This document shows, piece after piece, positions 24,659 to 63,744 of a DNA stretch of 64,000 nucleotides; position 1 is the first letter of the stretch, and every line of letters starts with the position of its first letter. A program made the translations under genes and the position numbers. Origin of the DNA: a virus (Duplodnaviria; Heunggongvirae; Uroviricota; Caudoviricetes); IMG/VR virus record IMGVR_UViG_3300028886_000029, positions 270,007-334,006 of that record; one strand, 5' to 3'. Under the pieces are notes generated by a model. That model did not search any database. It was not told the origin of the DNA and saw nothing but the letters and a program-made list of their open reading frames with translations.

Positions 24659-24877
24659 ATGGCAAAACAACAAGCAATTGAACAAACAGGTATTGTACTT
24701 GAAAGTTTACCTAATGTGATGTTTAGAGTACAACTGGACAGTAACGGCATGATTATATTATGTCAATCATCAGGAAAAATGAGACAAAATTTTATTAAGG
24801 TAATTGTTGGAGACAAAGTTAAAGTCGAAATGTCACCTTATGATTTGACAAGAGGTAGAATTGTAGCAAGGCTTTAA
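24659..24877 (+). CDS. infA: translation initiation factor IF-1
   Basis: 72 aa; [35 protein letters not shown]. Confidence 0.95.
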
Positions 24878-34178: not shown

Positions 34179-34252
34179 AATGTTTGTCTTTTTCCAAAAC
34201 ATTTACTATTTATAATAAAAAAAAAATAATAGATATAAAATTGTTTTTAAAA

Positions 34253-35311
34253 TTGGCAGAATTAGAATGTAAAGAATGTGGTAAAATTTTTGAATATGAA
34301 AAAGAATCTTCTTGTAGGGGACAGTTAAAGAGACATTTAAGAGAATGTCACCATATGTCAGTATTAGATTATATTGTTAAGCACGAATATAATGGTATTA
34401 GACCAAAATGTCCATGTGGTTGTGGCCATGAATTAAATTTAAGAAGTGGTGGAAAAAGATGGGAATTTACCAAATACTATGCTGATACTTGTTATGGTAA
34501 TTTAGTTAGAAGTTGTAATGAAGATGTTTTAAAACATTATAAAGAAGCACATAAAAATGATTTTGATGTTGTAAAATATTATGAAACACATTACGATAGG
34601 GATACATATGAAAAGGCATTTAAATTATTTTCAAGTAAAGAATTTACCTTAGAGGATGTTTCAAAATCTTATAATATTGATAAAAGGACATTGAAAAAAG
34701 TGTGGCTTGCAATGAACATTACAAATGCGGCTGAATTGACTGAACTAATAGATTATTCTAAATATACATTGTCAAAGTTACATAATCCTAAAGTGATTAT
34801 AAATGACGAAACAATGATGAGTTGGATGTATAATATGATAAAAACACACCCCTCCAAATATACAATACATGCACTAATAAAAGAATATAACAAAACACAT
34901 TTGGAAAATCCTTGTGAATCATATGATGGAACTTTGTTACAGTCTCTACATAGAATTTATGGTGATGAAATTGATTTTTTGTTAGCAACAGGCTATCACT
35001 CCAGCGAAGAATACAAACTTTATGAAGTATTAAAATTTTTTATACCTGAATATAGAATTAAGTTGGGTAAAAGATTTATTTTAAATGGTGATTATTGCTA
35101 TTTTGATTTTTTAATTGGTTCAAAACTACTTATTGAATATGATTCCGATGGAAAATTTCATGAATCAAAATCAGTGAAAATAAATGATAAAGAAAAAGAA
35201 AATTTTGCAAAAGAAAACGGTTATTCTTTTTTAAGACTTTCGAAAAAAGAAGCACAAGATATTAACACAATTATTAAAATTAAAAACATGTTAAAAAATG
35301 AAACTAGTTGA
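34253..35311 (+). CDS. free-standing Vsr/DUF559-like endonuclease with Zn-finger N-terminus (putative homing endonuclease)
   Basis: CKEC...H...H, CPCGCG; FDF...IEYDSDGKFH...D..K...GYSFLRL; TTG start after ACTATTTAT. Confidence 0.75.
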   Translation: MAELECKECGKIFEYEKESSCRGQLKRHLRECHHMSVLDYIVKHEYNGIRPKCPCGCGHELNLRSGGKRWEFTKYYADTCYGNLVRSCNEDVLKHYKEAHKNDFDVVKYYETHYDRDTYEKAFKLFSSKEFTLEDVSKSYNIDKRTLKKVWLAMNITNAAELTELIDYSKYTLSKLHNPKVIINDETMMSWMYNMIKTHPSKYTIHALIKEYNKTHLENPCESYDGTLLQSLHRIYGDEIDFLLATGYHSSEEYKLYEVLKFFIPEYRIKLGKRFILNGDYCYFDFLIGSKLLIEYDSDGKFHESKSVKINDKEKENFAKENGYSFLRLSKKEAQDINTIIKIKNMLKNETS

Positions 35312-36020
35312 AATAAAAAAAATCACACACAAACAGTGTACTAAAAATGTTTATGACCTTGAAGTTGAAACTGAACATTCTTACATTGCAAATGGTTATA
35401 TAGTGCATAATTGCCTTACAGCGAGTAACACAGCGGTTCATTTTCCGGTCTTTTCCTTATTGCAAAAAATCTATGATATAAAACAGCAAATTGGTGGTAA
35501 ATGTAAAATTATCGCTGACGGTGGAATAAAAGGATATAGGGATATACAAAAAGCTTTGATTTATGCTGATTATGTGATGATTGGCAGCTTATTTAATAAA
35601 GCGATGGAAAGCGCCGGTAAAACCACCTACGGTAGTTTCTATTGGAACATCAGGGGTAAAAAAATATATAGGCCAATCACAACCCTTCTAAAATACGGTA
35701 AGGAAATACCTAAAGACAAATATGAGGAAACTTATAGACTCATTAAAGACAATAAACTGACAGTGTGGAAAGAGTTCTTCGGTCAAAGCACAAAAATAGC
35801 ACAGGCTATAGTGGCATCGGCAAATACACAAACCCTTAAGTCACTTAAAACATCTGAAGGTCTCCTTAAATACCAAAAAGTAGAGTACACATTACAAAGC
35901 TGGGCTGAAAATGAAACCGATTACTTGCGTTCGGCAATGTCCTATACCAACTCACATACACTTGATGAATATAAAAACAGCCAATGGACAAGAATCACAC
36001 AAATTAGATATAATAAATAA
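35298..36020 (+). CDS. split-intein C-fragment (38 aa) + GuaB/GuaC C-extein
   Basis: VYDLEVETEHSYIANGYIVHN|CLT; IIADGGI, DYVMIGS, SEG, LRSAMSY. Confidence 0.9.
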   Translation: MKLVEIKKITHKQCTKNVYDLEVETEHSYIANGYIVHNCLTASNTAVHFPVFSLLQKIYDIKQQIGGKCKIIADGGIKGYRDIQKALIYADYVMIGSLFNKAMESAGKTTYGSFYWNIRGKKIYRPITTLLKYGKEIPKDKYEETYRLIKDNKLTVWKEFFGQSTKIAQAIVASANTQTLKSLKTSEGLLKYQKVEYTLQSWAENETDYLRSAMSYTNSHTLDEYKNSQWTRITQIRYNK

Positions 36021-37513: not shown

Positions 37514-37728
37514 AATTAATTTAGTGATTTTGCTTATTATTATAATAATAAATATTTTAATAAAAACAAAATCACTATCCTCACAAAAAATTATCTCCTA
37601 TTTTTTCTTTGTTATTCACTCATATTTTTGTATTTTTGTAAAAAAAGTAAAAATATATTTCTTATCACATCAAAACGGCACGATTTTTGTAATATAAAAA
37701 AACAAACTTTTAAAAAAAAATTATTTTT

Positions 37729-43842: not shown

Positions 43843-44038
43843 TCCCTATCTTTTCTTTTCTCTGAAGAACATAAAATAAATATCCTTCCCTTATTTTTCT
43901 ATAAATATAAACAATAAGGAAAAAAAACTTTCCAAAACACAAAAAAAAATAACTGGTTTTTCACCACTTATCAAGGTGAAATTCTCATTAAAAATAATGA
44001 AAATTTTTCTGGGAAAATTTTTCCAAAACCAATTTTTG

Positions 44039-44230
44039 TTTTAACAAGGGGGTGGTCCTGTGAAAATCTGAAATTTTCCGGAAAAAAAATTTTTGAAAAA
44101 ACCTACTTTTATTTTAACAAGGGGTGGTCCTGTGAAAATCTGAAATTTTCCGGAAAAAAATTTTTGAAAAAACCTACTTTTGTTTTAATAAGGGGTGGTC
44201 CCCTGAAAAAAGTCATTTTTCCGGAAAAAT
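44039..44230. repeat. about 72-bp direct repeats (two full, one partial); candidate origin iterons
   Basis: TTTTAACAAGGGGTGGTCCTGTGAAAATCTGAAATTTTCCGGAAAA... at 44039, 44112, 44183. Confidence 0.85.
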
Positions 44231-44596
44231 TAACGGAAGCAACTGTGCCGCCCATATTGTCATTTTGGCAGGGGGATGGGGATGGGAGGGGGTTTACAGT
44301 AGGGGTATGGGATACATGGGGATACCACAGCCATACATAGTACTATCCATCATCTTGCTCTTATCATAGTTAAAACGTTTTATTTTTAAAAGAAATATTT
44401 TTAATGATACTTTGTTCATAAAAAAGATAAAAGTGTTTTATAGGGGCTAAAAATAAAAATCTTAAAAATATGCGGTGTTATATACATTGTGGCACTGAAT
44501 ATGCAAGTAATGTATAAAGATAAAAAAAGTTGTGTATTTGGTGAAAGAAAAGTCCAATGTTATCGTATAAATAAGTGTAACAAAAAAAAATGTATT

Positions 44597-44821
44597 ATGA
44601 ACAAGACTTACACAAACAGAGAGATTGAAACTATTCTTATCCGTAACGGATTTGTTATTGTTAGGAACAATGGTGGACATTGTATATATATGAGGGACAA
44701 TGTAAGTATCAGTATTGTCATGGGTCATGATATGAATCCAATGATATGGAGGAGGTTATGTAAGGAAAACAATATTGATTGTAGGGTTTTAGACAAAAAA
44801 TATTGGAGAAAGGTGAAATAA
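44597..44821 (+). CDS. HicA-like mRNA interferase
   Basis: REIETILIRNGFVIVRNNGGHCIY...ISIVMGH pattern, 74 aa. Confidence 0.65.
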   Translation: MNKTYTNREIETILIRNGFVIVRNNGGHCIYMRDNVSISIVMGHDMNPMIWRRLCKENNIDCRVLDKKYWRKVK

Positions 44822-47280
44822 AACGGAAGTGGGGAAGTATAATATAGCAGATGTTTAACTTTTAAATTGTTTTGTTATGAAAGAGAGTTTGAGAAAAAAA
44901 TTTGAGAAAGAGGTTGAGGGAGTTATCAACTATTTGGTCAATGCCGACAAGTTAAGGGGAGAGATTTTGTCAGATAGTGAGGATTTGGTTTTGTATGACA
45001 AATGGCAGAATGTACTTGCCAAGGCTTATGACATTGTGGTGTCATTTGCTGATGAGCAAGGCATAGAGGTGGATTAGGAAAAAAATTTGTGGGGAAGTGA
45101 AGTTACGGCACGGATATTGCTTGTAGTGTAGATGTATGTTTTTAATTTAATTTAGTTATGGCAATTAGCATTGAAAAAATCGAAGAAATGAGTGATATGG
45201 CCTTAGTAGGTATAAGGAACATATCCGCACACGGGGTAGATACAATATGTAAAACAATAATAAATAGGTACAAGAAATGTGTTGACATGGATGAATATGT
45301 TGATACCGACATTAACGCGGAGCATGGTGTTCTTGATTTCGTGATGATACTGATTGCTTTCAAGTTAAAATACAAGGGTGTTACCGATAGTTTAGGTTTG
45401 TTGTCATACCATGGTGATATGCTCAACATAATGAACATGGTGTGTTTGATTATGATGTATGAGGAAAGAATGTAAAAAAGTTGTGTAAAAAGGTCAGTTT
45501 GGCATTGAATATGCAAGTAAAGTAAGTGTATTGTTTAATTTAAAAAATAGTTATTATGGAAAACAAGATTTACAACGCGTTGAACAACATCAAGGGTAAC
45601 ACTATTTTGGGTATCACTTATTTTAGTGACGTGCGTATGAACAAAGGTGGCAGGGCTTGCACCAATCCTTTGTGGGGACATAAAGTAGTAAGGGTTACTA
45701 CGACTGAATTTCAGTTCGGTAACATCTATGAGAATAGTGTCAATAATAGGTCGGAGAAAGAAAGTGGCGTGAGGGTGTTTGAGACGGAAGCACCTAAAGG
45801 AAAGGTATGGGAGAAGTTCCCTTATTTTCTCAAAAACCTTGACGGAAGTAAGACTTATGTTAGGTTTTACAAGATGCGTAATGTTAAAGGCAGCAGTTTC
45901 ATTCTTGTTGATGGTCATTTGGTGACCGAAGATGAAATGATGGTTATCAAGGAGTATGAGCAGAAAAAGACTTATACAAGTCAAAAGCAGAGTGAAGCTG
46001 GATTGACGGAGAATCAAGTTGAGGTAAGGGACATCAATATAGACAACATATTGAGGATTGTTCTGAAAGGTGATGAGATTGTCAACACAATTGCGGAGGA
46101 AACAATAAAAGTTGGGGCATAGACCCCAATTTTTTTGTTTTGTGGTTGATTTGGCATAGAATGTGCAAGTAATGTAAGTGTATGTTTTTAATATAAATTG
46201 TTATGGAAAAAATCGGATTAAGAAAATACAAGAGCGGTAATGGTTTCAAGCCTTGTGATAATTGGTATTATAGTTTAGAGGATGCTTTGGACTGTGTTGA
46301 CCATGGTATCGCCAAACTTAAGGCGCAGTATGACATGGAAGGCAGGTTAAAAATCAATATCATTTTTGATGATGATGAGGGTTATTACTATGCTTGCAGG
46401 ATTCCTAACATGACCACAAGGGAGTTTAACGAAAGATATGGTAAGGATTATATAGATAATTTTAACTTTTATTTGTAGTTTGGTATAGTCCTTGCAAGTA
46501 AAGTAAGTATTAATTTTAAATTGTTTTTATTATGTACATTCTTTTTGATAGTGTCGAACAAAGGAAGTCTATAATCAATAGGCTTGAATCAATGGGATTT
46601 GAAAAGTCAGAATTCAGTTGTTCTAATAATGAGGTTATTGGTGTCGGTACTTACTACAATCCACTATCTAATGAGAGAGTATATATATTTCTCAATAAGC
46701 CTATGGTGTTTATTGATGATGAACGTTTTTCTTGGGTGATGAAAAGGACAAAGGCTGAAACCGAAGAAGAGTTTTTCAATGGATTGGAAAAAATGATGAA
46801 TACAATGAACAAACAAGATGAATTGTTTGGTAGATATATGGCACATTAATTGCAAGTAATGTAAGTGTTGTTTAATTTTAAAATTGTTTTTATTATGGAG
46901 AAGTTTGTTCCGCAGAAAAAGAATGAGTTTGTTGGTGCCATCAAAAAGTATTTGATGGGTGGTTTTATTATTAGATATGATGGTATTGAAGAACATCCAT
47001 TGGAAATACTGACAAGGGATGGTGTTAAATTCCTTTCAACAATGGGAAACATTGGGAATGGTGTTGACAAAGGTTTTCTTCATAGTACCCTAAATTGTTC
47101 CCACAAAATTCTATTTCTTATAATAGATGAGTTGGAAAAAGAGTATTCAGTTAGAATAATTAGGTGTGGAAATAGTGGTTGTTGTCAATATGCAACTTAT
47201 GGTGTATATCTTGATTAGTTTGGCACGGTAATTGCTATTAATGTAGGTGTTGTTTAATATTAATCAAAACACAAAAGAAT

Positions 47281-47508
47281 ATGAACAGAAGAAATGATTG
47301 GCAATATCTTCTTAAAATCGCCAATGAGGATTTGGAAAAGAAAGGTTATTCTTTACATCTTGTCGAAGATGAGGATGGATATTATAGTTGTGAGGTTTGG
47401 AAAGATGGGGAGTTTATTGACATCTATGCGGAAAACTATTGGGATGATGAACTTTCTGAACTAATTACAGATGCTTGGCATCACGTTTGTAAATATTTGG
47501 CACGTTAA
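47281..47508 (+). CDS. hypothetical protein, paralog of 56021..56248
   Basis: NDW..LL..ANEDLEK.GY...YAENY..DEL..LITDAWHHV in both. Confidence 0.75.
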   Translation: MNRRNDWQYLLKIANEDLEKKGYSLHLVEDEDGYYSCEVWKDGEFIDIYAENYWDDELSELITDAWHHVCKYLAR

Positions 47509-48028
47509 TTGTAATAAGAATAGATGTTGTTTAACTTTTAAAATTTAATTATCATGAACGTTTTTCAGTACGGAGCAATTTGCGAAAAGAATTGGGAGCA
47601 GAATCTTGCTAACATGAGTGGATATGAAAGGAAATACACTTTTTATAGTGATTTTTCTATTGCGGAGTTTTGTGAGGTGTGGATGCGTGATAGGGGAGCT
47701 ATTGTAGATACTTTCAATAGGGTAATTGAAAGTTGGGGCAGTTCCATTGAAGCGATGAGTGAAATTGTTATGGTACTTAACCATAAGATATGGGCGTTTC
47801 ATGATGGCGTTGATAGCAGTTATCTGAAATGTAATGAGACCAATAGGGATAAGATTGCAAGGTTATATGATAAGTTATATCGTAAGGCAGAAAATTTTGT
47901 CTATGAAAAATTTGGTGAAGATAAGGACGCAATGAGGTATTATTATAGTGTAATTGATTAATTTGGCATATTTTGTGCATCTATTGTAAGCGTATAGTTT
48001 TAAGTTTAATTCAATAAAAAGTATTATT

Positions 48029-48508
48029 ATGAAGAAGTTTTTTAGATTTGTTTTTGTAACTTTGGTTACTATTGTATCAATGTATAATGTTTCTTTCGGA
48101 CAAGTATGGAAAAGTACTTATCACGAAGCAGATGAATTGAAAGATGAAGATGCTTATTATTCTAATCTTTTTGTTGACAATAAAGGTGATGCTTTTGTTA
48201 GTTGGAGTAATACTAATGATGTAAAAGTTGTTAGCAATCGTGGTATTTTTGATTATGACCGTTATAACTTTGTTAAAGGAATTGTTGGTTTTTATGAAAA
48301 TGGACAATTAATGGAAAAAGTTTCTGTAAATTTTTATGTTCCTAAAGGCGATGCTAATAATGCATATACAAGTGATATAATAGATAAAACTATTGGTAAA
48401 AAGATTATTACCCATCTTAAGACAAAAGGAAATGTTCGTATTATTCTCAGTAAGTATAGTGGTGCTGACTTTGACTTGATGATTCCTATGAATAAAGATA
48501 TTAAGTAA
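48029..48508 (+). CDS. secreted hypothetical protein
   Basis: Signal peptide MKKFFRFVFVTLVTIVSMYNVSFG-Q. Confidence 0.65.
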   Translation: MKKFFRFVFVTLVTIVSMYNVSFGQVWKSTYHEADELKDEDAYYSNLFVDNKGDAFVSWSNTNDVKVVSNRGIFDYDRYNFVKGIVGFYENGQLMEKVSVNFYVPKGDANNAYTSDIIDKTIGKKIITHLKTKGNVRIILSKYSGADFDLMIPMNKDIK

Positions 48509-49255
48509 TTAAAAATATTTCCTATTTTTTCGTGCCATTCCGTTTGGTTTGGCACGATTTTAGTTATAATTGTAATTGTATAATTTTTGACATTTGATAC
48601 ACCTGAAGAAAACCGAGTAGCCGTTTGTTTAATAAATAATAAGTAAAATATGGGAACAGATTTTCACGATTTGTTAAAAGAATTTAATATTAGTGATAAC
48701 ACTAAACTTGTACCAAAGTACAAATATTATATTTTACATATCAGTATGTCTTTTGATAATAGTTATGTAAATGATAAAGTGGAATTTTATAATTTTGATA
48801 AGGCAGAAATGGCTGAACATTATGCAGAATTATTAAAAAAAGCATTTAGTGAAAAATATAAAGATAGACATCCTTGTTTTTCTTATAGCATTCATAGACA
48901 AACTTTTAGTTTAGTCACTGAATAAAGGTGGTTTGGCATAGACCTTGCTTGTAATGTAGATGTATAATTTTAAAACATTGTGTTATGGCAAACAAGAGAG
49001 TATCGTTAATGAAAGTAGCTGAATACATTTGGAAGCATTATGGGGGGTGTACTATTAGTAGGCTGTACACCAGAAACAACAAGATTGTTTCCAAATGTTA
49101 TGTCGCTTGGTACACAAGTCCAATTATTTTCACAAGGGACAAAAAGAAAAGTGAAAATTTAGGTTATGTTTACATTGAGGTGTAGTTTGGCATAGACCTT
49201 GCTTGTAATGTAAATGTAATATTTAAAAATTGTTTAACTTTAAAAAATAGTTATT

Positions 49256-49804
49256 ATGGAAAAGGAGAAGCAATTGATTAGTCTTGGTACGATGAATGTT
49301 AAAGGTGATGTTTATATTACTGACCCTTGTTATAACACGGATACTTGGTGTATGGGTTTGATTGAAATGAAAAAGGGTGAGTACAATTGTTTTGCTCATT
49401 TGTTTGATTGTGGTATATGGGGTGAAAGGATTGGGATACTTGAAATTATCCTTAATAATGAGATTGGAACAAGTTTGAGGACTGACAATCTTGGTTTGAA
49501 TATTGGGGTTGATAGTGGTCAAGCAGGTTTTTTCAATAAAGACTATTATGAGAATTATCATCATAGTCACTTTATTGACGAAAATTCAGAGGATGAGAAA
49601 TGGTACAAAAGGGTGTGCGACATAACCTTAAGTGACGATAATTGTGGTGTTATTGATGATGAGGGTGTTGTATCTGAAAGTGGTTATGGTGATGGTTGTT
49701 ATGATGTTTATGGTTATTATAATGATAATGATGAATTGGTTGGTTTGAAGTTGGTATTTATATGGGAAGAAGATGAAGAAGAAAATGATGAGGATTATGA
49801 GTAA
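49256..49804 (+). CDS. DUF4241-like protein
   Basis: ITDPCY, GVDSGQAGFF, SGYGDGCYDVY. Confidence 0.6.
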   Translation: MEKEKQLISLGTMNVKGDVYITDPCYNTDTWCMGLIEMKKGEYNCFAHLFDCGIWGERIGILEIILNNEIGTSLRTDNLGLNIGVDSGQAGFFNKDYYENYHHSHFIDENSEDEKWYKRVCDITLSDDNCGVIDDEGVVSESGYGDGCYDVYGYYNDNDELVGLKLVFIWEEDEEENDEDYE

Positions 49805-50221
49805 TTTGGCATAGACCTTGCAAGTAATGTAAGTGTATATTTTGTTTAACTTTTAAATTTGTGTTAATTATGTATAACAAAGTCAAAGAAAATGTAAACA
49901 AATTGGTTTATGATTGGGTATTGGCTTGTGGTGAGAACGGTCATATATATCCAAATGCTTATGTTGATTTGGAATTGTTTGGGGCAATTATGCACACTTT
50001 GATAATTGAGTTGTATTGCATGAACGGCAGGGATATTACAGTTATAAGCAGAGTTGAGGGGAGGGACGATGATAGGGATACATTTACTGATTTTTCACTT
50101 AGTGAAATGTGTCGGATGGCGGATGCTTGCGGTTATCCCGATGATTAGGTAAGTTTCAGAACTAATTTCAATTTGAATTGTTCATACTTTCTTTAAATCT
50201 TAAATACTTTCTTTAAATTTT

Positions 50222-50257
50222 AAATGACGGATGTTGTGAAATATCTGTCATTTTTTA
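50222..50257 (+). terminator. intrinsic terminator, identical copy at 53035-53073
   Basis: AAATGACGGATGTT-GTGA-AATATCTGTCATTTTTT. Confidence 0.75.
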
Positions 50258-52646
50258 TTGTATGGTGTACATTATGGCACGGAATGTGCAAGTAATGTAG
50301 ATGTATATTTTGTTTAACTAAAATAGTTGATATTATGGCAAAGTTAAGAGGAATAACCAATTCTATGATGAGTGATGTCAAAGCCGATATTCACAAATAT
50401 GAGATGGCGACAACAAGTGATACAAAATACACTGACGCATATAAACTAATGAAAACTTATCCCGAAATAAGATACTGCAATTATTGGTCGGATGAAAGTA
50501 TGGCGAAAGGTAATGGCATGATGGATTATAGCATCACAATGGAAGATGCCATAAACGGAAAGGAAATTGAGGACAATGAGGTTCATATTAATCAAACCAA
50601 CAAAGACAAGATTAAGATGTGCGGTACATCTTATGAAGTTGGTAGTGTAAACAAAGTTGTTTATAATAAGAAAGAAAGATATATTAGGATATATTATTAT
50701 AACAAGTATAGGAAAAGAGGGGATATTGATTACCTATGTTGTTGGGGACAATATGACATGATTGGCGGTAAAATGAGTGATAGGATGAAAGCGGTTAATG
50801 ATAAGAATTTTTCTGATGCCGTTGACTATCTTTTGTCTTGTTTGGCATAGTCCTTGCAAGTAATGTAAATGTATTGTTTAACTTTATTTGTTTTGTTATG
50901 GAAAAGAAAGAAATGATTACAAAGTTGTACGAAGGTCTTAATGAGATTGAAGGTTTGTTCAGTTTCTTCCACGTCAAGACCTTCACCATCACTGTTGATA
51001 GCAGTAAATATGATGTGATGGAAATGTACGTTGATGTTGATGACGATGTGTGCGTGTCGTGTATCGGTTATCATTCGTTTAGGGTGTATCATTTTAAACT
51101 TAATGAGTTGAAAACAAATACAGTGAAAAAAATTTTTGAAATGTTTTCAGATGAGGCAAAACGCGGTGCGTATTTTGCAATAAGTGAGATTGTCAATAAA
51201 CTTGAAAAAGCGGGGGTGTAATTATGAATACTGATATTGTTGTTTGGGGAACGATGGCTAATGACATTGACAACTTTGAGTTTGTCAAGGTGGATAATGT
51301 TGGGTTGATAAGAACCTATACTTTCAATTACGGCAGATACATTGTTGAGGTTGATGTCTTTAAAAAGAACAATCACATGACTTGCTATCTATGGTTCAAT
51401 GGAAAAATAGTTTGTTCTTGTTTTTGTGATGTCGCTAAAAGATTGGGGACACTTTTGTTAAAAAAATATTGGAAAGAGCTTAAGAACGGCACGAATCTTG
51501 TTATATAGTGTAAGTGTTATTAACTTTAATTTTTTTGTGTTATGAAAGTTTATGTTGTTATAAAGTCTATGTTTAATGACATTAATGGTAGGTTGAGCAT
51601 TGTTAAGGGTATATATACCACAGAGGATAGTGGCAGACTTGCGATGCTTGAAATGTTTGACAAGGATAAAGCCGAATATCGAAAAACATATAACGACAAT
51701 GATGGTATCGTAGAAGAGGTTGGTGACACACGATGTAGGATTTATATAGAGTGTGACTATGATGAGATTTGGTACGATATGTGTGAGGTGGAAACTGACA
51801 AGGAGATAGAGATTATTTGTTAGTTTGGCATAGACCTTGCATATAATGTAAATGTAATATTTAAAAATTGTTTAACTTTAAAAAATAGTTGTTATGGAAA
51901 AGAAAGTTAAAAATGACATTGTTTGGTTTGACACTGAATGGTGTGATAGAGCTGATGAGACGATTCAACCCGTTTCAGTGAATGGCACACTGCTTTATGT
52001 GTTATTTGACAGACGTGGATATAATTATGTATTCTTAACAATATACAAATTGCATTTGTTTTTCAGTGGGATAGATAACACTTATATGTTCACTTGTGAC
52101 AATGAGGAAGAACTGAACAAATTTCTTTCTGAATTGTAAGAGAACGGCATAGTCTTTGTTTATAAGATAGTTGTATAACTTTTAATTTTATTTGTTATGA
52201 GAACTTATTTTATCAATTACCTTTATCCCCAAACGATTGGGAGTTTCATTGTAAAAGCCGAAGATGGCATTAAGGCAAGTGAAAAGATTAGTTCATATCT
52301 TAAAAGCAAGGGAGTTGATTTGAGTAATTCCAACTCCACAGTCTGTGAGATAAAAGACGGAAAAATAGAGTTCATTTAGATAGTTTGGCATTGTTCTTGC
52401 AAGTAATGTAGATGTTAGTTTAACTTTAAATTGTTTTTAGTTATGAAGAAGTTTTTTCAGATTAGTCTTTATTTTGACGATGGCACAAACATTGGTTGGA
52501 ATTGTCCTTCGGAACTTAACGATGAGTGTGTCTTTGAAACTTACGATGATGCCGTTGAATGGCTACGCGATAACGGCTACGATGAGGAAACCGCTGACAT
52601 CACTGAATGTCTCTTTGATGAGGATGAGATAAAGGATTTGACAATC

Positions 52647-52804
52647 ATGTAATATAAAGGGTGTGTGACATGGTAAAGATTAGAGATAAGCCTTAATAAT
52701 ATATAGATATTTGATATTATTTGTATGTAATATAAAGGGTGTGTGACATGGTAAAGATTAGAGATAAGCCTTAATAATATATAGATATTTGATATTATTT
52801 GTAT
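52647..52804. repeat. perfect 78-bp tandem duplication
   Basis: ATGTAATATAAAGGGTGTGTGACATGG...GATATTATTTGT at 52647 and 52725. Confidence 0.92.
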
Positions 52805-53080
52805 TGTTTAATTCATATAAAACGATAGGAAGCCCAAGCAATCGGCAGTTAATAGGCTAAACAATGGAATGGTTACAAAACTGCAAAGTTACTCATAGGT
52901 AACACAAAGGACATTAAGGAAATTAAAAAACCTTATATAACCAATAGGTTCGGTCAGCCTTGGTGATAGTCTTGTGACTTGGAAATTTTTATTAAGGGTT
53001 TTATTTAGAACTAGAACATATCAAAAATCTTTATAAATGACGGATGTTGTGAAATATCTGTCATTTTTTTTTTATATATG

Positions 53081-53096
53081 GTACTCATTTGAGTAC
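53081..53096. repeat. palindrome GTACTCA-TT-TGAGTAC (also at 58189, 62931, 63987)
   Basis: Four identical intergenic copies, the last truncated by the window end. Confidence 0.85.
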
Positions 53097-54065
53097 CTAA
53101 TGGCACGATAGTTGTTATATAATAAATTGTGTAATTTTAAAAACAAATTGTTATGGAGAAGATAACCGATTTTAGTTACAATGATGTTGTTCTTTATGCA
53201 AAAGGTTGGTATAAAAGGACTGACAATGTATTCAATGACATAAAGGAATGTCTTAAGGAAGATAATGTGTATAACACTTGGGATAATATGTCCCCAAGAG
53301 ACATTTGTGGTCATATGCTAAGATGCCTTGATAAGATATATGGTTATCTTGATGATAATGACAAAAAGAATGGTAGATGGCTTTGCAGTCATGCCGCCTT
53401 TCTTGACACGATAGAACACAAGATGAAATTTTATGGAAACACTTATGAGGAAGCGATTGTATATACAGTTCTTTCAATCCTGCAAGGATTGAGTATTGAT
53501 GAGATTGAATTGAAAGCTCCGAAATATGGTAAGGGTCGTAGAAGAATGGGTGGAATGTTTAGTAATTATCCTATTTCTATGACATATAAAGAAATGAATA
53601 AAATTGCACAATTAACATTTAATAAAAAATAGTTTGGCATAGAATGTGCAAGTAATGTAAGTGTATATTGTTTAACATTTAAAAATTGTTTATTATGAAA
53701 AATAGTATTGAACTTTTACCCAAGGCGATTGAGTTTAACGATGGGAGATATTATGAACTAAGGATATATGTCACGGCATGGTTTAAACTTTGCTTAGCAT
53801 ATTGTAATCCTTTTCGTAGAAGCAGTGGGTGTTTGTCAGATGACGACAACATCTTAACGGTTGTTGTTGAGGGTGACAACAAGATTGAGAAGAAAATGAC
53901 AAATGACTATACAGTGATTTTCGATGCGTCTGATGTTGAGGATGCCGTTGATATTACATTAAGGAGAATAACCGCCTTACAAAATATTTGTGGTGATAAT
54001 GTTAAGTTAAAATATTAGTTTGGTCTTATCTTTGTAAATATAGAAATTGTTAAAATAGAAGTGTT

Positions 54066-54464
54066 ATGATTTCAGAAGATTATGTCACCTACGAGACCGC
54101 AAAACTCTTAAAGGAGAAAGGGTTTGATGAAGCTACTATTGGTTACTATAATACCCTATGTGAAATACCCGAAAGGATAAAATTTTTCGATTCTCCAATT
54201 TTTATATACGGCAGTGATGGACTTATCGGATGTATTCAGGCCCCAACCCTTCAGATGACGATGAAGTGGTTGAGGGAAGTACACGGTATTGATATTGAAG
54301 TGCGAACTCATTATTTGAATTATCTAAAACCAAACGATATTCGTTATTATAGCGGAAAAATCTTAAAAGGTAGTGAGGACGTAATACACACTATATACTC
54401 AAAAGATACCTATGAGCAAGTCGCTGAAGCAGGTATTCGTTACTGTCTTGAAAATTTAATTTAG
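54066..54464 (+). CDS. hypothetical phage protein (EDYV..ETAKLLKEKGF family)
   Basis: APTLQMTMKWLREVHGI motif. Confidence 0.6.
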   Translation: MISEDYVTYETAKLLKEKGFDEATIGYYNTLCEIPERIKFFDSPIFIYGSDGLIGCIQAPTLQMTMKWLREVHGIDIEVRTHYLNYLKPNDIRYYSGKILKGSEDVIHTIYSKDTYEQVAEAGIRYCLENLI

Positions 54465-56020
54465 ATAATGACAAGGTTTGGCATTATTCTTGCAAATAAT
54501 GTAAGTGTATTGTTTAATTTAAAAATTGTTTGTTATGCAAAAGAAAAATGTTAACATTAATGTGAGTGAGAGAGTTGTTAGTATTGCCAATATGATTAAT
54601 GATAATAACAATCCTGCGGTAAACCAAATTGTCATTGAATTGGAAAATCGTGGAAAACTTTTTGTAAGTTATAGCTCACTTATTTGTTATAAAAAAGGTG
54701 ATATTGTTTATTTATCATCAAAATGGAATTTTAGTCAAACCACACGAAAGCATCTTTATATGTTTATGAGGGACGAACTTGGTTGGCAGAATATTAAAAA
54801 GAAAAAAGATGTTGAACAACTGATTAAAGAAAGTAATGTTCTTATTTTGGTAAATCAAATTGTTTTTTAAAGAATATCCAAATAGTTTGGCATAGAATGT
54901 GCAAGTAATGTGAATGTATTAAAATTAATTAATTATGACTGGAAAAGATGTAATAAAATATATTCAAGAAAATAATCTTGAGGACGCAAAAGTAACGGTT
55001 ACTGCTACAATGTATTATCATGGTGACCATGATTGTCGTACAACTGATGAGGTGTCAATATCACAAGAAAGCGAAAGAATGAAAGTTGAGTGTGAGGGAA
55101 AAAGGCCCAAATACATAACTGTTCCTACGATTGATTTCTATGTTGATTCTTATCTTTATTAAATTATGACAAGAGAAGAAGCAAAAAACATCATTTGGAA
55201 CAAATTTCTTGAAAAGGCATTTTGTTCAAAATTATATGCCTAAGAATCCCATTGTTTTGGGTGATGGTAGTATTGTCACTATGATATATAGTACAATAAG
55301 AGGTATGTATGATAACTATGTTGTTTCTGATTATGATGGTGTTTTAAACGATGAGCTTGTGTCTTTGTTTGTCGTATTTAAGGAAACCAACGCGAACGGA
55401 TTTTCAAAATTTAGACAGTTAAAAAACATGAAAACTGAAGATATAATCACTATTGCCGAAAGGATGATGGCATAGTCTTTGCAAGTAATGTAGATGTATT
55501 GTTTAAAAATTGTTTAACTTTAAAAATTATTTTGTTATGGAAATGAATATGTTTTGGAATGAAATGCAAAAGCTTCATGCTAAGATTAAGAGCTACATTT
55601 GTGAGTTTTTCAGTGAAAACAATTTAGAGAGTATTAATATGTTGCCTTATGTGAGTAATGGCTACATTGATTCGTTTACATTTTTTGATGTTGATAACGA
55701 TGGTTGTTATGGTGTCGCTTTAAATGTTGATAGCATTGAATATAACAAAGACAAAAACGAAATTAAAGCGGTATTGTCTGATTATGAGGGTGTACATGAA
55801 GTAACACGTTCTTTTATAGATTTCAATACCCAAGAACTGCTTTATTTGGCTGATATGTTGTCAATGATTAAGACCGCACACGAAACTAAAAACACACCCT
55901 ATCTTGCTATTGGTGAAGAATTTGATTTTGATGAACTCCTTTTTCAATGATTATGAGTAGTTTGGTATAGACCTTGCAAGTAATGTGAATGTATTATTTA
56001 ACTTTTAATTTGTTTTAGTT

Positions 56021-56248
56021 ATGGCAACCATACTCAACGATTGGGAAAAGCTCCTTCAATATGCAAATGAAGATTTGGAGAAACACGGATATTTGCTTCT
56101 TATTAGTGAAGATGAGGGTTGTTACTCATGTATAATATGGCACAATGGTAAGCAAATAGCCGTTTATGCTGAAAACTATTTTGAGGACGAACTTACTGAT
56201 TTGATTACTGATGCTTGGCATCATGTTATAGGTACTTATATAGTATAA
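56021..56248 (+). CDS. hypothetical protein, paralog of 47281..47508
   Basis: Same conserved motifs as 47281..47508. Confidence 0.75.
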   Translation: MATILNDWEKLLQYANEDLEKHGYLLLISEDEGCYSCIIWHNGKQIAVYAENYFEDELTDLITDAWHHVIGTYIV

Positions 56249-59200
56249 GTATATAAAGATATGAAAACAATAACAAAGGAACAGTGGTATAAGATGCTTG
56301 CCGTTAATTGTAATCGAAGCAAGCATAGGTTTAGGACAAACAACTATGGCATAACATTTTGTGTTATTTGTGGCTTGTTATCCAATAAGGGGGCAGATGT
56401 TCTAAATGAGGAAGAAAAGATTAAAGTGGTTTAGTCATGTACAAGTTTTTTTATACTCTAACATTTGATGATGGCACGATAATTGACGATAGTTGTTATT
56501 GTGAGAGTGAGAAAGAACTGTTAAATATGTTGGCATATCTATATCCAACGGCATTTGTTGAAGTTTTTTAGGATTTCTTTCACTATGGCACGGAATGTGC
56601 AAGTAATGTAAGTGTAATTTTAAAAACTAATTGTTATGACAAAGATTTTACTTAACGATGAGACTGATTGGTACACCGCATTTGATACAAGGACATTTGC
56701 ACTGAACACCTCAACATTTTTGTTTGAGAACACTTCATGGACAGAGGGATTGTTCGCTTTCATTTATGATGATAAGGACACAATGTTTGATGAGAGTGAT
56801 GTTTCAATAGTTGTTAGGGAAAAGAAACCGATGTTTCTTCTTTATAACACAAGAAACGAATTAATTGGTTATGTCAATTAGTTTGGCACGGAATGTGTAA
56901 GTAATGTAGATGTATTGTTTAACTTAAAAGATGTTTGTTATGAAAGTCAAATTTTTTGAGGATTTCACAAAGAATGACCTTTGGGCATTGAGAAATGAGA
57001 TTAGTTTAGGTAGTCTTTTTGTTTATGACTATGAGAATAGTTTTAACCTTGACCCTCATACAGTGTCCGATTTCTTCGATAGTTACGTTGACTATCTTGA
57101 TAACGAATGTGGCGGCATTGACAATGATAGCATTGACAATCTTTTTGATTGGTTCTGCTGCTATGACGATTTGTCTTTCATGAGGTATGACCTTGAAGAA
57201 TTGGTTGACGAACTGAATGGGGTGACGGAGGAACAACATTGGATTGAGGATGGCAGGTACTTTGTTTGCTACGATACCGACAACATGGACAATATTGATG
57301 AGATTAGTGAAAAAGAACTAATCAATAAGATAAATAGAAAACTTGTTGACTATTAATATTATTGAATATATATTAGATAATAACAAAATATCTAATATAT
57401 ATTCAATAATTATGGGTTTAACAAAAGAACAATGGGTAATGAAAAGGATTAAAGAGCTTACCGACATTGTTAATAAAAAAGGCAAGGAGATTAAAAAGGA
57501 AATCAGATATTATTGTGGCAAAGAACCGCTGATTATCAAAGATATTTGTTGTGATGGAATCGCTTTGGTAAAAGATGAACTTGTTTTCGCTGACAACAGT
57601 AAGCACGGATTTACCATAAGGAAAAAAGCAAACGAAGTGGAAAGGAAATATTTGGAAGAAGTTTTGTCTGATTTGAAATAGTTTGGCATAGTCCTTGCAA
57701 GTATTATAAGTGTTTGGTTTTTATGTTTAATTGTTTTATTTTTAACTCGTTTTTTGGTATGGAAGACAAACTTTACAATTTTATTCAAGACATTATTGAC
57801 AATCTGTCAGACGATGATTTGAGAAATCTGCATCAAGATTATTGTGAATGTAATAATTATACCGATGACATGATTTTTTCAATGTGTGATTTCAATGACT
57901 TGAATAACAACAAAACACCTCTTGAAATTGCTGAATTGGTGTGTGGTAATGATTTCAATCCTAATCATGATTGGTTCAAGTACACTATCTATGGTGTTGA
58001 GTCTTCTGACAATGTTTCGGATTTGATTTACATCAGTGACTTGGTTAATTGGGTTGAGATTGACCCCTATAGGATTAGGAAATATCTTGATTATGATGAG
58101 GAGGAGGAACTTGACGAACTTCTTGGTCTGAATGACGATGAGGATTGGGAAGAAGATGAGGATGAAGACGACAATGATGAATAATAAGGTACTCATTTGA
58201 GTACTTTTATCAGCAAAATTCACAATTTATAAATCGCAAATTTTATATGGAAAAGATTATGATTGATAGCCTTAATAGGACTTATGTTGAGACATTGGTT
58301 ATGCCTTTCATTAGTGACGAAAACGATAGAGCCAAAATGGTCAGTCATATTATAGAGCATGTTGGCGCAGACGCTAACTTGGATGAGTATAACAAGTACA
58401 TGGGTGAACTTATTTTCAAGGGTGTAGATGCAGAGTATTACATTTAGTTTCTGCGGACAGAAATACACGCATGAGTTTTTCTTCGGTACCAAACCGATAA
58501 ATTGGTTTGGAATAAAGGACACGAATGGCAAATGGCACGATTGTTGTTACAATATGGAATTGGATTGTATATTCATATTTGGACAAGATAGTGATTATTT
58601 AGAAGAAACAAGTGTATGTATTGCGTAAAAAGATTTTACATTAAAAACGACATTGACCATCAGTATCAAGAGTTTTATAATAACATTGTCAGTATGGTTA
58701 TTGGTTTGTTTACTATAAAAGAAAATTGTTATAAGATTAAAGTAGTTAAAATTAAAAGTGTTTAGTTATGGGCAGTTATCAAGGTGATATGTTCGTCAAA
58801 AATTTGTTTTGGGATTTGTTTGAGGAAACAAGTAAACCTCATATTCTCAAATACGATTTTTATAACCTCAACGGTGACGACAAATATGAGATTGCGAAAA
58901 AGACATTTGATGATTGTGTGGAGATAATCAATGAGCAATATCCGCATTTTAGTGAAGACAATCCGATTTGGCAGGAGGAATATAGGGACAACATTGTCTT
59001 TGAATTTACCCAAATGTTGTAAAAATTTTTGATTTTGGCTGACTTTCGGAAAGAACGGCATACTCTTTGTTACATTAGTTAATGTGAATTATAAAAACGA
59101 AAAATCATGAAAGAGTTTAACAAATGGTTTAAGATTAGTTTTTCCTTTAGGGGTACGGACTTTGAACACACAATTCACCTTAATCAAATTGAGGTTGACG

Positions 59201-59502
59201 AATGTACTTGGTTCTATTACTTTGACATCAATATCAAAGAGGATACTTATAGAGTTGAGGTGTTCGGCACTTATGATGATAACGGTAATGTGAGGACAAC
59301 GGGTGATTGTGTTGTTGACGGTAGAGAGGTTGTGCCCGTATTCGGAATTAACATTCTTGACGACTTTGATGATGTTATTGACATTATAGATGATATTGAC
59401 ATCATAGATGCGGATTAATAAATATTTTTTGTTTTTTTAAAATATTTATATAAATTTGCTAAACATTTTAAAAATAATTTTTATTAAAAAAAGAACCGAA
59501 TT

Positions 59503-59667
59503 ATGAAAAAGATAGTATCAAGTATTGTTATTATTATGATGGCTATTGTCATGGTTTCATGTGGAAACAGAACCAAGAAGGTTGATACCGTTAATGAGGT
59601 TGCTGATACCACAGAGGTTGTGGCTGATAGCACCACAGTGGCGGTTGACAGTACAGTAGTTGAGTAA
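59503..59667 (+). CDS. 54-aa lipoprotein (below ORF-track cutoff)
   Basis: MKKIVSSIVIIMMAIVMVS-CGNRTKKVDTVNEVADTTEVVADSTTVAVDSTVVE*. Confidence 0.8.
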   Translation: MKKIVSSIVIIMMAIVMVSCGNRTKKVDTVNEVADTTEVVADSTTVAVDSTVVE

Positions 59668-62600
59668 TAACATTTTTTAAGTTAAACAATTTTTTTTTTG
59701 TCCATGTCAATAGTTTGGCATGGACTTTGTTTTATCTTGGTATGTAATTTAAAATATTTGTGTTATGGATATTGTTAAGACTATTGGTGCGAAAACTTAT
59801 GGCGGTATGACTTCCGTTGATTTCGGTGGTGTTTATCTCAACTCCATTTCATTGCAGTTCCACAACGGTAAAGAATGGATATATGATTATACCATATACG
59901 ATAGGGACTGTAATTTTCCTATGGTAATAAGGAAAGAATTCAAATGTTGTGTGGTAAATAATGTTGAAGAACTTCGTGCCGTTGGCAAGAAGATATTGGC
60001 AGGTGACACTTCTTTTCTCAATAGGGACATTGTTGTGAACACGAAAAAAGTTGACAAAGCAAGAATGGTTGAGATAGTCAGAACCAACAAAAACGTGATT
60101 ATGGCGGAAGAAAGCGCATATTTTGACAATACTTGGTATGTTGTTGAGGTAAAATAAATAGTTTGGCATGGAATGTGCAAGTAATGTAAGTGTTTTTATT
60201 TGTTTAACTTTTAATTTGTTTTGATTATGTACTACGACAAGGAAAGATTTGACAATGCTTTCAAGAAATTTCTTCATGAGTTTATTTGGTCAACTGAAAC
60301 TCTTGATGGATTCAATGAGTTTGACATAAAGGAATTTAAAAAGAAAATGACCAATGATGAGGACTTCAAACAACGTTTCCGTGAGATGTTCAATGGTATG
60401 ATTGATGATTATGTCAGTGACATTATTGAGAACAAGAGAGAGGTAAGGCGTTTTCATGTTACCAATATTGTATGGGATATGACTGATTCCCAAGGTAATT
60501 CCGAAGATGAGGGTATTTCACTTCCCAATGAAATTGACTTGTATTGCTTTGATGAGGACGAAATCGCTGACACACTTTCAGACGATTATGGCTTTTGTGT
60601 GAAAAGTTTTGTGGTAAACTATTAAAACTAAAATATCATGGCAAGAAATAAGATGCAATTAATTAACAAGATTAAAGGACTTGTTAGGAAAAACACGGAT
60701 AATAATACCTATTACTTCGCAACCAATACGATTGCGGATATGTGGAACAATGAGAAGAAGATACCAACGGTACTTCATTATCTTAAAGTAAAAAACGATG
60801 TGCTTTACATTTGTGTGTCAGATGTGTGGCTTGACCACTCCATTGAGAAATTCAGTGACTTTGACATTGATGAGATTGAGTATGTGTACAATTTGGTTTT
60901 AAACAATAAGTAATATGTTGTCAGATAATTTCAGAAGCAAGGCGACCGACCTTAATGCGGATATTGAGATTGCGATTGCCAAAATCATAAACAAGAAAAA
61001 CATTAAAGACCCTTCAATCAAAATTGGTGTTGATGATAACAATAACAGATGTGTCTTGTTCAATGGTTGTCCAATAAGAAAACTACATATCGAAGACAAT
61101 CTTACAATTCTTGAGAATTTGGAAAACCAAAACGATGTTTTGGCATAGACCTTGCAAGTAATGTAGATGTATATTTTGTTTAACTAAAAAAATCTGTTTG
61201 TTATGAAAAAGGAAATTATCAACACAACTTATCTTGATTCAAGGTGGTATCTTGACTATAAGTATGAGGACTATGTTAGGGATTGTGAGGACTTGGGCAT
61301 TGAACCTTGTGAGGAAAATTCAAATGGTTATTGGGATTACATTTCCGAAGAAACAAATATCAACTATGAGGACTTTTTCGATAACCTTGAATATTCCCCT
61401 ATCAATAACACACCTTGTATGGTTGTTGGCTCCGTTGGAAGATGGAACGGTGATTTTGAGATTGTTCCTGTCCTTTTCGATAACATTTCAGATGCTATCC
61501 ACAAATGCCTTAATGGTGCGGACGATTATGAGATTGTTTTGAAAGACGGTTATATCACCGTTTGTGGCTATCATCATGACGGTTGCAACTCCTTTGAGAT
61601 TCATATTCTTTCCAAAAAAGGTATGAAAGAAATTGATAGACCTAAATACAATTATGAGGACTATAATGTAAAACCTTGGTGGTTTAAGAAAATTTATGGT
61701 TATCTTTTCTAATAATGGCATGGTCTTTGCCATTATTGTCAATGTTATTTTGTTTTAATTTAAAGTTTATGGTTATGACAGAAAAATTTACTCTTTCAAA
61801 CGGAAAAGAGGTCAAAGTTAGTGTTCATAGGAACGGCACAAGCAGTGTTATGCTTAATGGTAAACACTATAAGTACAAGGTTATTGTGGAAGTTAACAAC
61901 ATAACCAAATACTTTAATTTCCACGACAGTATCGCTAATTATACAAAAGGTGCCTATCCTATTGTCGGTGAGTGTTTGGGATGCGTGCTGATGGATGCTT
62001 TCGATTATTATGAGAATTCCAATCCCCAAAACTTTGCCAATGAGTTTGGTTACGAAATAGGTACAAGGGAATTTGTAAGAGCCTATAATGGTTGCGAAAA
62101 AGCATATTATAAGATGTTGTCAATGTTTTCATTTGACGAAATGTATGAACTATACAATTTTCTTGCAGAAAAAGGTTATATTTAATGATAATGGCATGGT
62201 CTTTGCCATTATTGTTAATGTATATTTTTGTTTGGTTTAAAATCATTTTATCATGAAAAAGTTTAATCTTGACATTTGTTTCTTTCCTGGTTTTTACGGA
62301 ACCATTTATGATTGTGTTGATAACGAAACAGCCGCCATTGAAATGGAAATGGAATATCAATCCACTTCTGAAAACCATGGACTTTCATTTGACGATTTTG
62401 TCTTTGATTGGGATGCCTATAAAAAAGCGGTGGCCGAAAACTTTGTGGATGCCTATGCCTTGTACGCAAAGGAAATCCCTTTCATTAAAGCAATTACGTT
62501 TGATGAGATTGAAAGTCCACGGTACTATAACTTTACGACTGACAAAATCTATTGTTGGTTTGAGTTCGCTGACTCATGGAAAGACGACATGAGAAAATTC

Positions 62601-63744
62601 ATGGATGAGAACTACGATTGGCTGAAAAATATCATCCATGAGGAACACACCTCAAGAAGCGGCTTCATATCCTTTATGGATAATGACATTGATGATTGGT
62701 ATAATCGTCTCTTTGTTGATGAGGAGAGCATCTACATTGAGGACATGATTAAATATATGATTATGTCAAAAAACAATGTGGAACAAATGTTGGATGATAT
62801 TAATATGACAGTATATGACAACGTGATTGAGACTGAATTCGTCTCCATCAAAGAAAAAAGCGAAAGTAATGTGTAATATATTATAAGTTACAGCCATTAA
62901 AACAATTTAACATGTAATATATTATATATAGTACTCATTTGAGTACCTTACGGCATGGTTATTGTATTATAGTGTAAGACTTAAAATTTTTATTATGGAT
63001 AAGGAAACCGCACAAAAAGTTTGTGATGAACTGAACACCTCAATTTGGAGGGAAACCATCAACAAGGCCATCTATAACAAGTTGGGCGTAAAAGTTGAAA
63101 TGGCCGCTAAGTTGTCTCACGGAAGAACCCAAGACTATGTTGTTCTTGAGGATACTTTCGGTAAGGATGTATCTGATAAAATGATGGGTAATAAACTTCT
63201 TAGACACCTTTTCGAAAAAGCCTATATTGAAATTGAAGTGTGGAACTTTGACGACTCTTATGGATTTCCTGTCAATGTATACTATAACCATCATGATGGT
63301 GGAAGCAATGGACATCAACTACTGCTTTTCTATATCATGAAGCACAATAGAAAAATCATCTATCGTTGAAATCTTTTTTGTCTTTTCCTATTATTTTAGT
63401 ATATTTGTAAAAAAAACACGTAATATGATTAAGTTTAATGATTTCGCAAAAGTAATAGACAAAATCTGCACACTTGACGACACAGCCGCTAAACTTGCGG
63501 ATATTGGTATTGATATCTATAACACCCCTTTCTATGAGTGTGCCACCTCTCTTGCTGAGGATTTCTTTAACTGCCATTTTAACGCTGATGGCGTTGACCT
63601 TATCTATTGGTGGCTTTATGAGGATGTTGAGAAACTTATCTATGATGAGCACCATAATATCGTTGATAATCTCACAAATATAGAAGACCTTTTTGATTAT
63701 CTTACTGACCCTGACAATAATTACTTGCTTTAAAACTCTATATT

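Follow-up and report, generated by a model that had tools for sequence, protein, structure and literature searches.

In a 64,000-nt window (positions 270,007 to 334,006) of the phage genome IMGVR_UViG_3300028886_000029, an array of 36 cassettes, each with a sigma54-type (-24/-12) promoter motif and an AT-rich leader, alternates with about 49 small genes of 44-207 amino acids (aa), at 44490..62966 on the + strand. Judging from the sequence, each cassette is probably a promoter read by the sigma54 RNA polymerase of the host, probably early in infection, and opened by a host bacterial enhancer-binding protein (bEBP) without a local enhancer. What argues most strongly for promoters, as against decoys or simple repeats, is that relatives of this phage put promoters of the housekeeping factor sigmaA in the same slot. 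The informative relatives, here called G223, G224 and G225 (this phage being G000), were reached via homologues of the block gene starting at 47554. An earlier note on this DNA had attributed transcription of the block either to host sigma54 or to a phage sigma54-like factor. The host holoenzyme is supported by the match to the groES and SM4 promoters of Bacteroidota and by the promoter swap, and the phage factor found no support.

All 36 cores listed in the earlier note, namely 26 exact GG-N10-GC copies and ten GG-N10-GT variants, are present on the + strand. The coordinate given there is that of the pyrimidine preceding GG and holds for 35 of them, while the core placed at 52146 starts at 52145. 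The untrained pattern YGGYAY-N6-TGC recovered 26 sites on the + strand of 44400-63100 and none on the minus strand, and 200 dinucleotide shuffles of these 18.7 kb gave a mean of 0.18 and a maximum of 2. Relaxed to TGY, the pattern found 39 sites vs 0.9 expected, and the seven alternative GG/GC spacings N7-N9 and N11-N14 yielded 0-1 sites each. The ends and the spacing of the core are fixed and its middle varies, as had been claimed: GG and the second G are invariant, and the 36 cores comprise 28 distinct 16-mers. Two of them, 54021 (TGGTCT) and 48550 (A preceding G), fit the phage consensus less well. Conservation reaches beyond the core into an extension, AGTAATGT-A-R-TGT, and 32 of 36 cassettes have a G at +28, counted from the first T.

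Every site is in sense orientation at a promoter-like distance from an ATG, which is 50-70 nt at 29 of the 36 (full range 44-104 nt, median 56), in line with the earlier note. On the + strand, 49 genes start before 63400, and the proposed rule of one motif per small gene holds for 36 of them. At 29 of the 35 sites having a preceding block gene, the core overlaps the end of that gene or sits at most 30 nt away, and at 10 sites it begins exactly 3 nt past the preceding stop. The left 44 kb of the window is at background level with the single exception of 37676, again as described before. The individual sites are the following.

44490..44505 (+): GC core TGGCACTGAATATGCA, upstream of the HicA-like gene 44594-44821
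45106..45121 (+): GC core CGGCACGGATATTGCT
45500..45515 (+): GC core TGGCATTGAATATGCA
46152..46167 (+): GC core TGGCATAGAATGTGCA
46481..46496 (+): GC core TGGTATAGTCCTTGCA
46839..46854 (+): GC core TGGCACATTAATTGCA, overlapping the end of the previous gene
47221..47236 (+): GC core TGGCACGGTAATTGCT
47498..47513 (+): GT core TGGCACGTTAATTGTA; homologues of gene 47554 have the sigma54 motif in G223 and sigmaA in G224 and G225
47964..47979 (+): GC core TGGCATATTTTGTGCA
48550..48565 (+): GT core TGGCACGATTTTAGTT; 48549-48565 equals the SM4 core of F. psychrophilum remF
48934..48949 (+): GC core TGGCATAGACCTTGCT
49188..49203 (+): GC core TGGCATAGACCTTGCT
49807..49822 (+): GC core TGGCATAGACCTTGCA
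50275..50290 (+): GC core TGGCACGGAATGTGCA
50843..50858 (+): GC core TGGCATAGTCCTTGCA, overlapping the previous stop
51487..51502 (+): GT core CGGCACGAATCTTGTT, within the end of the previous gene
51826..51841 (+): GC core TGGCATAGACCTTGCA
52145..52160 (+): GT core CGGCATAGTCTTTGTT; the homologue of gene 52197 has sigmaA in G225
52386..52401 (+): GC core TGGCATTGTTCTTGCA
53101..53116 (+): GT core TGGCACGATAGTTGTT
53635..53650 (+): GC core TGGCATAGAATGTGCA
54021..54036 (+): weak GT core TGGTCTTATCTTTGTA
54479..54494 (+): GC core TGGCATTATTCTTGCA; the homologue of gene 54535 has the sigma54 motif in G223 and sigmaA in G225
54888..54903 (+): GC core TGGCATAGAATGTGCA
55468..55483 (+): GC core TGGCATAGTCTTTGCA, overlapping the previous stop
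55963..55978 (+): GC core TGGTATAGACCTTGCA
56586..56601 (+): GC core TGGCACGGAATGTGCA
56884..56899 (+): GT core TGGCACGGAATGTGTA
57684..57699 (+): GC core TGGCATAGTCCTTGCA
58533..58548 (+): GT core TGGCACGATTGTTGTT, a probable 37th site absent from the earlier note, inside gene 58428-58628 and 83 nt 5' of the ATG at 58616
59056..59071 (+): GT core CGGCATACTCTTTGTT
59716..59731 (+): GT core TGGCATGGACTTTGTT, its -24 box being the 3' arm of a terminator-like hairpin at 59700-59725
60164..60179 (+): GC core TGGCATGGAATGTGCA
61141..61156 (+): GC core TGGCATAGACCTTGCA; homologues of gene 61203 have the sigma54 motif in G223 and sigmaA in G224 and G225
61716..61731 (+): GC core TGGCATGGTCTTTGCC
62192..62207 (+): GC core TGGCATGGTCTTTGCC, enclosed by an inverted repeat at 62182-62218
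62951..62966 (+): GT core CGGCATGGTTATTGTA
37676..37691 (+): core of the dispersed type CGGCACGATTTTTGTA, with a sigmaA-like TATTTTTG box upstream

The array extends past the end of the window, with further sites at genome 334445, 335765 and 335949. Outside the block, 25 dispersed sites were chosen by eye from a scan of the whole 363-kb genome; among them are 37676, those of the tRNA array and the three past the window end. Most are of the GG-N10-GT type (TGGCACG-T-rich-GT) and precede single genes and tRNAs. An automated whole-genome census counted 54 non-coding sites at N10 vs 2 at N9 and 6 at N11. The 16 tRNAs lie at genome 7240-17582 on the minus strand and have three sigma54-type sites among them; the site at genome 334445 (+) precedes a tRNA-like 5' end which was not called by ARAGORN.

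The phage motif closely resembles promoters of the Bacteroidota. Using a pattern for the Bacteroidales-type GroES N-terminus, we collected 119 metagenomic loci, of which the 99 unique ones with at least 200 nt upstream were used. TGGYAY with GG-N10-GY precedes 92 of these 99 groES genes (68 GC, 24 GT), and other spacings occur at 4-12 each. A matrix comparison, which the earlier note had suggested, gave a clear match: a host matrix built from groES only puts 30 of the listed phage sites among the 31 best-scoring positions in the block. In F. psychrophilum, the motif SM4 precedes groES, dnaK, grpE, clpB and the remF operon with mapped transcription start sites, and mutagenesis of one SM4 promoter confirmed the motif as a promoter element (Guerin et al. 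2021, PMC9723704). Nine of the 95 rows of the SM4 supplement were considered; five are GT and four are GC, the start site lies by eye 23-28 nt past the base preceding GG, and phage 48549-48565 matches the remF core in all 17 nt (PMC9723704). Since both the SM4 rows and the host groES sites include GT, the GT variants are normal for this phylum. A search of the literature, with subscription papers mostly outside its reach, found no rpoN genetics in Bacteroidales.

The comparison with relatives was most informative. Their sigmaA promoters have a -33 box, which we take to be TTTG. The -7 box of Bacteroidota sigmaA promoters is TAnnTTTG (PMC9723704). G225 (393 kb, capsid 86% identical) is the sister of this phage on the capsid tree, and its equivalent block carries an array of TTTG-N19-23-TAnnTTTGCA. 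Seven block genes have homologues in G225, four with sigmaA -33/-7 promoters, one with a distant sigma54-like site and two with neither; in G224, two of four homologues have sigmaA promoters and two neither. TAnnTTTGC occurs once on the + strand of the phage block (18.7 kb) vs 15 times in G224 and 24 times in G225 (16.4-kb blocks). The 43-kb fragment G223 has about 40 sigma54-type sites within its first 21 kb. Among its 16 homologues, 11 have a sigma54-type site, one a sigmaA box and four neither, and their gene order is partly shuffled. The boxes are retained in G223 while the middles of the cores differ, and the downstream extension is only partly retained there and in G007. Outside the block, a DUF932 gene has a sigma54 site here and in G009 and a sigmaA promoter in G225, and sigmaA promoters precede a VWA gene in both G003 and G007 and a 530-aa gene in G005; most other homologues in this out-of-block test carry neither motif.

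In a count over 21 records, G001-G006 have 42-109 copies each of the strict sigmaA pattern; there are 16-27 in G007, G008, G021, G224 and G225, 10 in this phage, two in G009, one in G223 and 0-11 in the remaining seven. Non-coding sigma54 sites lie above controls in this phage (54), G225 (31), G009 (22) and G007 (13), which form a clade on the capsid tree with support 100/100, and barely above controls in G003 (8) and G005 (5). Thus, one host-type promoter per small gene is the usual layout of the wider clade, most members of which have sigmaA arrays, and the subclade uses the sigma54 class to a varying degree. With as many as 109 near-perfect sigmaA promoters in one genome, G001-G006, G224 and G225 also provide a library of strong Bacteroidales promoters. 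In the sigma54 array of G007 (G007:C1:188000-209000, minus strand), most block genes are preceded by strong Shine-Dalgarno leaders (AAAGGAGGT); its flanking and capsid-region genes have none, which is unusual for an otherwise Bacteroidota-type phage.

At entry, the host sigma54 holoenzyme would bind the -24/-12 boxes, and a host bEBP would open the promoters without a local enhancer, either from solution or through a few distant boxes. Such enhancer-free opening is proposed because 29 of 35 cores adjoin or overlap the previous gene and activator boxes are mostly missing. Even bEBPs that lack a DNA-binding domain can reportedly open sigma54 promoters of any kind, although less efficiently (PMC3844500). 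The predicted transcription start lies 12-14 nt past the GC, with the conserved purines of R-T-G as its likeliest position; the resulting leaders would measure about 20-45 nt and have no Shine-Dalgarno sequence. The scarcity of terminators would lead to read-through transcripts and, together with the near-identical cassettes, to strong expression. Cassettes that share up to 34 nt exactly would also allow the shuffling of gene-plus-promoter modules, as in the PeSLs of T4-type phages. A phage sigma70-type factor would later take over the late genes, for which a third motif recurrent in the genome, ACTATTTATA, may serve.

Several observations weigh against this reading. At 86 of the 92 host groES sites, two or more TGNCA boxes, by inference the binding sites of a bEBP, lie within 110 nt upstream (in regions further upstream, 11 of 64); only 4 of 36 phage sites have them, which is the random rate (15%). 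The promoter-opening step is therefore hypothetical. A TGNCA pair is found at 44258, 230 nt 5' of the first site, and the gene preceding 45106 contains five boxes; at most cassettes, the upstream sequence is purely coding. For Parabacteroides, a fragment gave 3 matches vs 9 in the control, numbers too small for judging box-less host promoters. Six of the 36 phage sites score below 3 bits with the host matrix, 35 of 36 have T at -14 vs 10 of 92 host groES cores (mostly C or G), and T at -17 to -15 is scarcer in the phage cores than in the host ones. The assignment of SM4 to sigma54 was made by motif likeness and not by knockout (PMC9723704). The swap within the block comprises six gene comparisons in two relatives. 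Moreover, the early or takeover role of the block is deduced from gene size and layout, since only two or three of its 51 genes bear a functional label (those seen are HicA-like, DUF4241, lipoprotein and membrane protein).

Two regulators of another type are encoded in the genome:

707..1402 (+): sigma70-family factor, not a sigma54
genome 91358-92221 (minus strand): second sigma70-family factor, RpoD-like as is the first

It is conceivable that one of these two factors reads the motif and that the likeness to sigma54 is convergent, and the extension AGTAATGT-A-R-TGT, absent from the host groES consensus, would fit such a reader. We consider this very unlikely because both factors have homologues in relatives with sigmaA arrays. 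Furthermore, 92 of the 99 host groES genes have the same core in front of them, G223 and G007 retain the extension only in part, and ACTATTTATA is available for a phage sigma. A sigma54 of the phage's own found no support either: none of the three sigma54 domains (PF04552, PF04963, PF00309) was detected in a six-frame search of the genome, and B. thetaiotaomicron, the positive control, matched all three. Nor were RNA polymerase subunits found among 344 scanned phage proteins. Host sigma54 acting at the same promoters might instead be helped by an unrecognised activator, encoded by the phage or delivered with the virion. The missing local boxes speak for it, as do the confinement of the motif enrichment to the subclade G000/G225/G009/G007 and the hypothesis that Htm, an AAA+ protein of an E. 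coli phage without GAFTGA, acts on the sigma54 holoenzyme (bioRxiv 10.64898/2026.10.06.757011). The full-genome search for a bEBP proposed by the earlier note came out negative, however, with PF00158 matches only in ClpB and RecD2 and no GAFTGA-like motif in the genome. The sole orphan AAA protein (genome 73437-74600) was rejected as a bEBP; it resembles the classic-clade proteasome/AFG2 ATPases, its gene follows a sigmaA-like box, and its homologue is present in sigmaA-type relatives too. A transcription label was found on none of the 24 subclade-biased proteins scanned, though most lack any label, and the comparison of 434 proteins with five relatives and G223, with PHROG and Atlas look-ups, gave no activator candidate. 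We therefore regard a phage activator as improbable.

Two further readings deny the cassettes a role in driving their genes. As decoys, the sites would hold sigma54 holoenzyme in closed complexes and so blunt the chaperone and envelope stress response of the host, while the genes are read through from elsewhere. About 60 near-consensus sites genome-wide without activator boxes would suit this purpose, and sigma54 closed complexes are reported to stay inactive unless a bEBP acts (PMC3844500). It is nevertheless hard to reconcile with the sense orientation of every site and its leader-like distance from a start codon, with real-looking sigmaA promoters in the same slot of relatives, and with a block nearly free of other promoter classes (sigma70-like sites were not enriched in the block scan, 115 vs 104.7 expected), and we hold it to be quite unlikely; titration of sigma54 could still be a side effect of the array. 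That the cassette is a mere recombination or translation-leader repeat, spread by shuffling and without promoter function, we can hardly credit. Exact identity over at least 20 nt in 24 of 630 cassette pairs (longest shared stretch 34 nt) and the altered gene order in G223 are what such a repeat would leave behind. Yet the 28 distinct cores keep their ends and spacing while the middle varies, the boxes are kept in G223 with different middles, and the same genes swap to sigmaA promoters in relatives.

Phage early genes are expected on activator-free housekeeping promoters or under a phage polymerase, and sigma54 promoters cannot open unless an ATPase acts on them. An early-type block built on such promoters is unexpected because of this need for ATPase opening; either sigma54 of Bacteroidales is much less strict than the proteobacterial model would have it, or an unknown opening route exists. 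Somewhat speculatively, a lineage of Bacteroidales jumbo phages may have moved its immediate-early programme from sigmaA to sigma54, relying on promoters that lack an enhancer and are opened in an unrecognised way, by a factor of the phage or virion or by a host activator that infection stress switches on, and sister phages would flip the same genes between the classes. Both classes begin TTTGG and end TTGCA, so that flipping may proceed via short deletions. If true, infection would depend on a stress sigma of the host and leave the phage free to shut down sigmaA.

Hairpins and repeats accompany part of the array:

50222..50253 (+): terminator-like hairpin directly 5' of core 50275; a second copy at 53035-53066 lies 5' of core 53101
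53081..53096, 58189, 62931 and 63987: operator-like palindrome GTACTCATTTGAGTAC, abutting cores 53101 and 62951

Over 20 kb, 17 hairpins resemble terminators, vs a mean of 6 in shuffles, and about five adjoin a core. The ATGAC...GTCAT repeats were considered as enhancers and rejected, as they resemble terminators. The palindrome has seven copies, all within genome 323-337 kb (the others at genome 334405, 336554 and 336924), two of which abut -24 boxes; G225 and G223 have related copies in their equivalent blocks, and none occur in G003, G005, G007 or G009. At the strand switch adjoining the first promoter, window 44014-44330 holds three direct repeats of 72 nt each, along with a G-rich tract that includes a TGTCATTTTGGCA box, a region which could be an origin, a terminus or a shared enhancer. 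An exact 78-nt tandem duplication containing TTAGAGATAAGCCTTAA lies at window 52647-52802; four related copies were found mid-array in G223 and none in five other relatives.

The record is linear and rated 100% complete by CheckV. It represents a T4-like myovirus of 363 kb and 33.5% GC with T4-type capsid, portal, sheath, tube and gp32, as well as PolB, ClpB, DnaJ, IF-1 and the two sigma70-family genes. The standard code applies, and recoding of stop codons need not be assumed (coding density 0.890 vs 0.894 and 0.893). The phage probably infects Bacteroidales of the cattle gut. Shine-Dalgarno-like motifs precede 4% of 398 phage genes, and A is over-represented at -3 and -13. The IF-1 gene (window 24659-24877, +) scores above the TIGR00008 cut-off, is common to G225, G009 and G007, and has its best matches in Phocaeicola and Bacteroides; a PG1828-family lipoprotein match lies below the cut-off. 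The presence of sigmaA-type boxes elsewhere in the genome also supports a Bacteroidales-type host. In a bovine-gut metatranscriptome, two runs of one sample contain contigs identical to the block, covering 28 of 30 and 19 of 30 bins; several span cores, and as assembled contigs they are evidence of presence only. The phage DnaJ, used as query against genome contigs, returned no Bacteroidota genome among the best 80 matches, and neither the extended-cassette patterns nor the 188-aa gene matched relatives in viral contigs.

Some further genes deserve mention. The first gene of the block (44594-44821, +) is a HicA-like RNase toxin, and no HicB label is found among the block genes. ClpP, DnaJ and ClpB (genome 19-37 kb; window 14079-16625) are gene kinds covered by the SM4 regulon of hosts, and a sigma54-type site lies upstream of the phage dnaJ (genome 30123, minus strand). 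At window 33258-36020 (+), an IMPDH/GMP-reductase-like gene is split over open reading frames (ORFs) with Hint/intein domains, with a 318-aa ORF between them. A 2035-aa protein with GH2 glycosidase and Fn3-associated domains (genome 52257-58361, minus strand) is perhaps receptor-binding or capsule-degrading.

The earlier note knew of no phage with a sigma54 regulon on this scale, and we likewise found none in the literature, subscription papers being mostly outside the search, apart from the single promoter of Pseudomonas phage YuA. TTGGCAY-N6-TGY is absent from immuto, Lak-A1, pT24, PAU, crAss001 and LR756508, and Mel-JY01 has three scattered sites. The lytic YuA has the host sigma54-like promoter P015 (PMC10914365, citing Ceyssens 2008), one promoter as against about 60 sites and a whole gene block here, and no swap with housekeeping promoters is described in the relevant part of that account. 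The Htm protein (Gp204) is likewise proposed to engage the sigma54 holoenzyme (bioRxiv 10.64898/2026.10.06.757011), but it acts on host genes and its sigma54 link is hypothetical; the orphan AAA of our phage looks classic-clade, and Htm was not used as a query. The PeSL cassettes of the T4-type phages RB49 and phi1 are also repeated promoter cassettes between small genes in a variable, reshuffled region, where the small genes are non-essential (Arbiol et al. 2010, PMC2839356). They combine a sigma70-like promoter with a stem-loop terminator (PMC2839356), whereas the cassettes described here are sigma54-type and few have a hairpin. The SM4 and groES promoters of Bacteroidota share with the phage TTGGCAY...GC/GT, the fixed N10 and the frequent GT (PMC9723704). 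The host groES sites have TGNCA boxes and mostly C or G at -14, while the phage sites have no boxes, T at -14 and the downstream AGTAATGT-A-R-TGT; the density of 36 sites in 18.5 kb also sets the phage apart from host promoters. The sigmaA arrays of the same jumbo-phage clade (G001-G006, G224, G225) have the same layout and partly the same genes but use the housekeeping sigma and need no activator. The matched sigma54/sigmaA pairs in sister phages would represent promoter-class switching across a whole regulon, with built-in controls.

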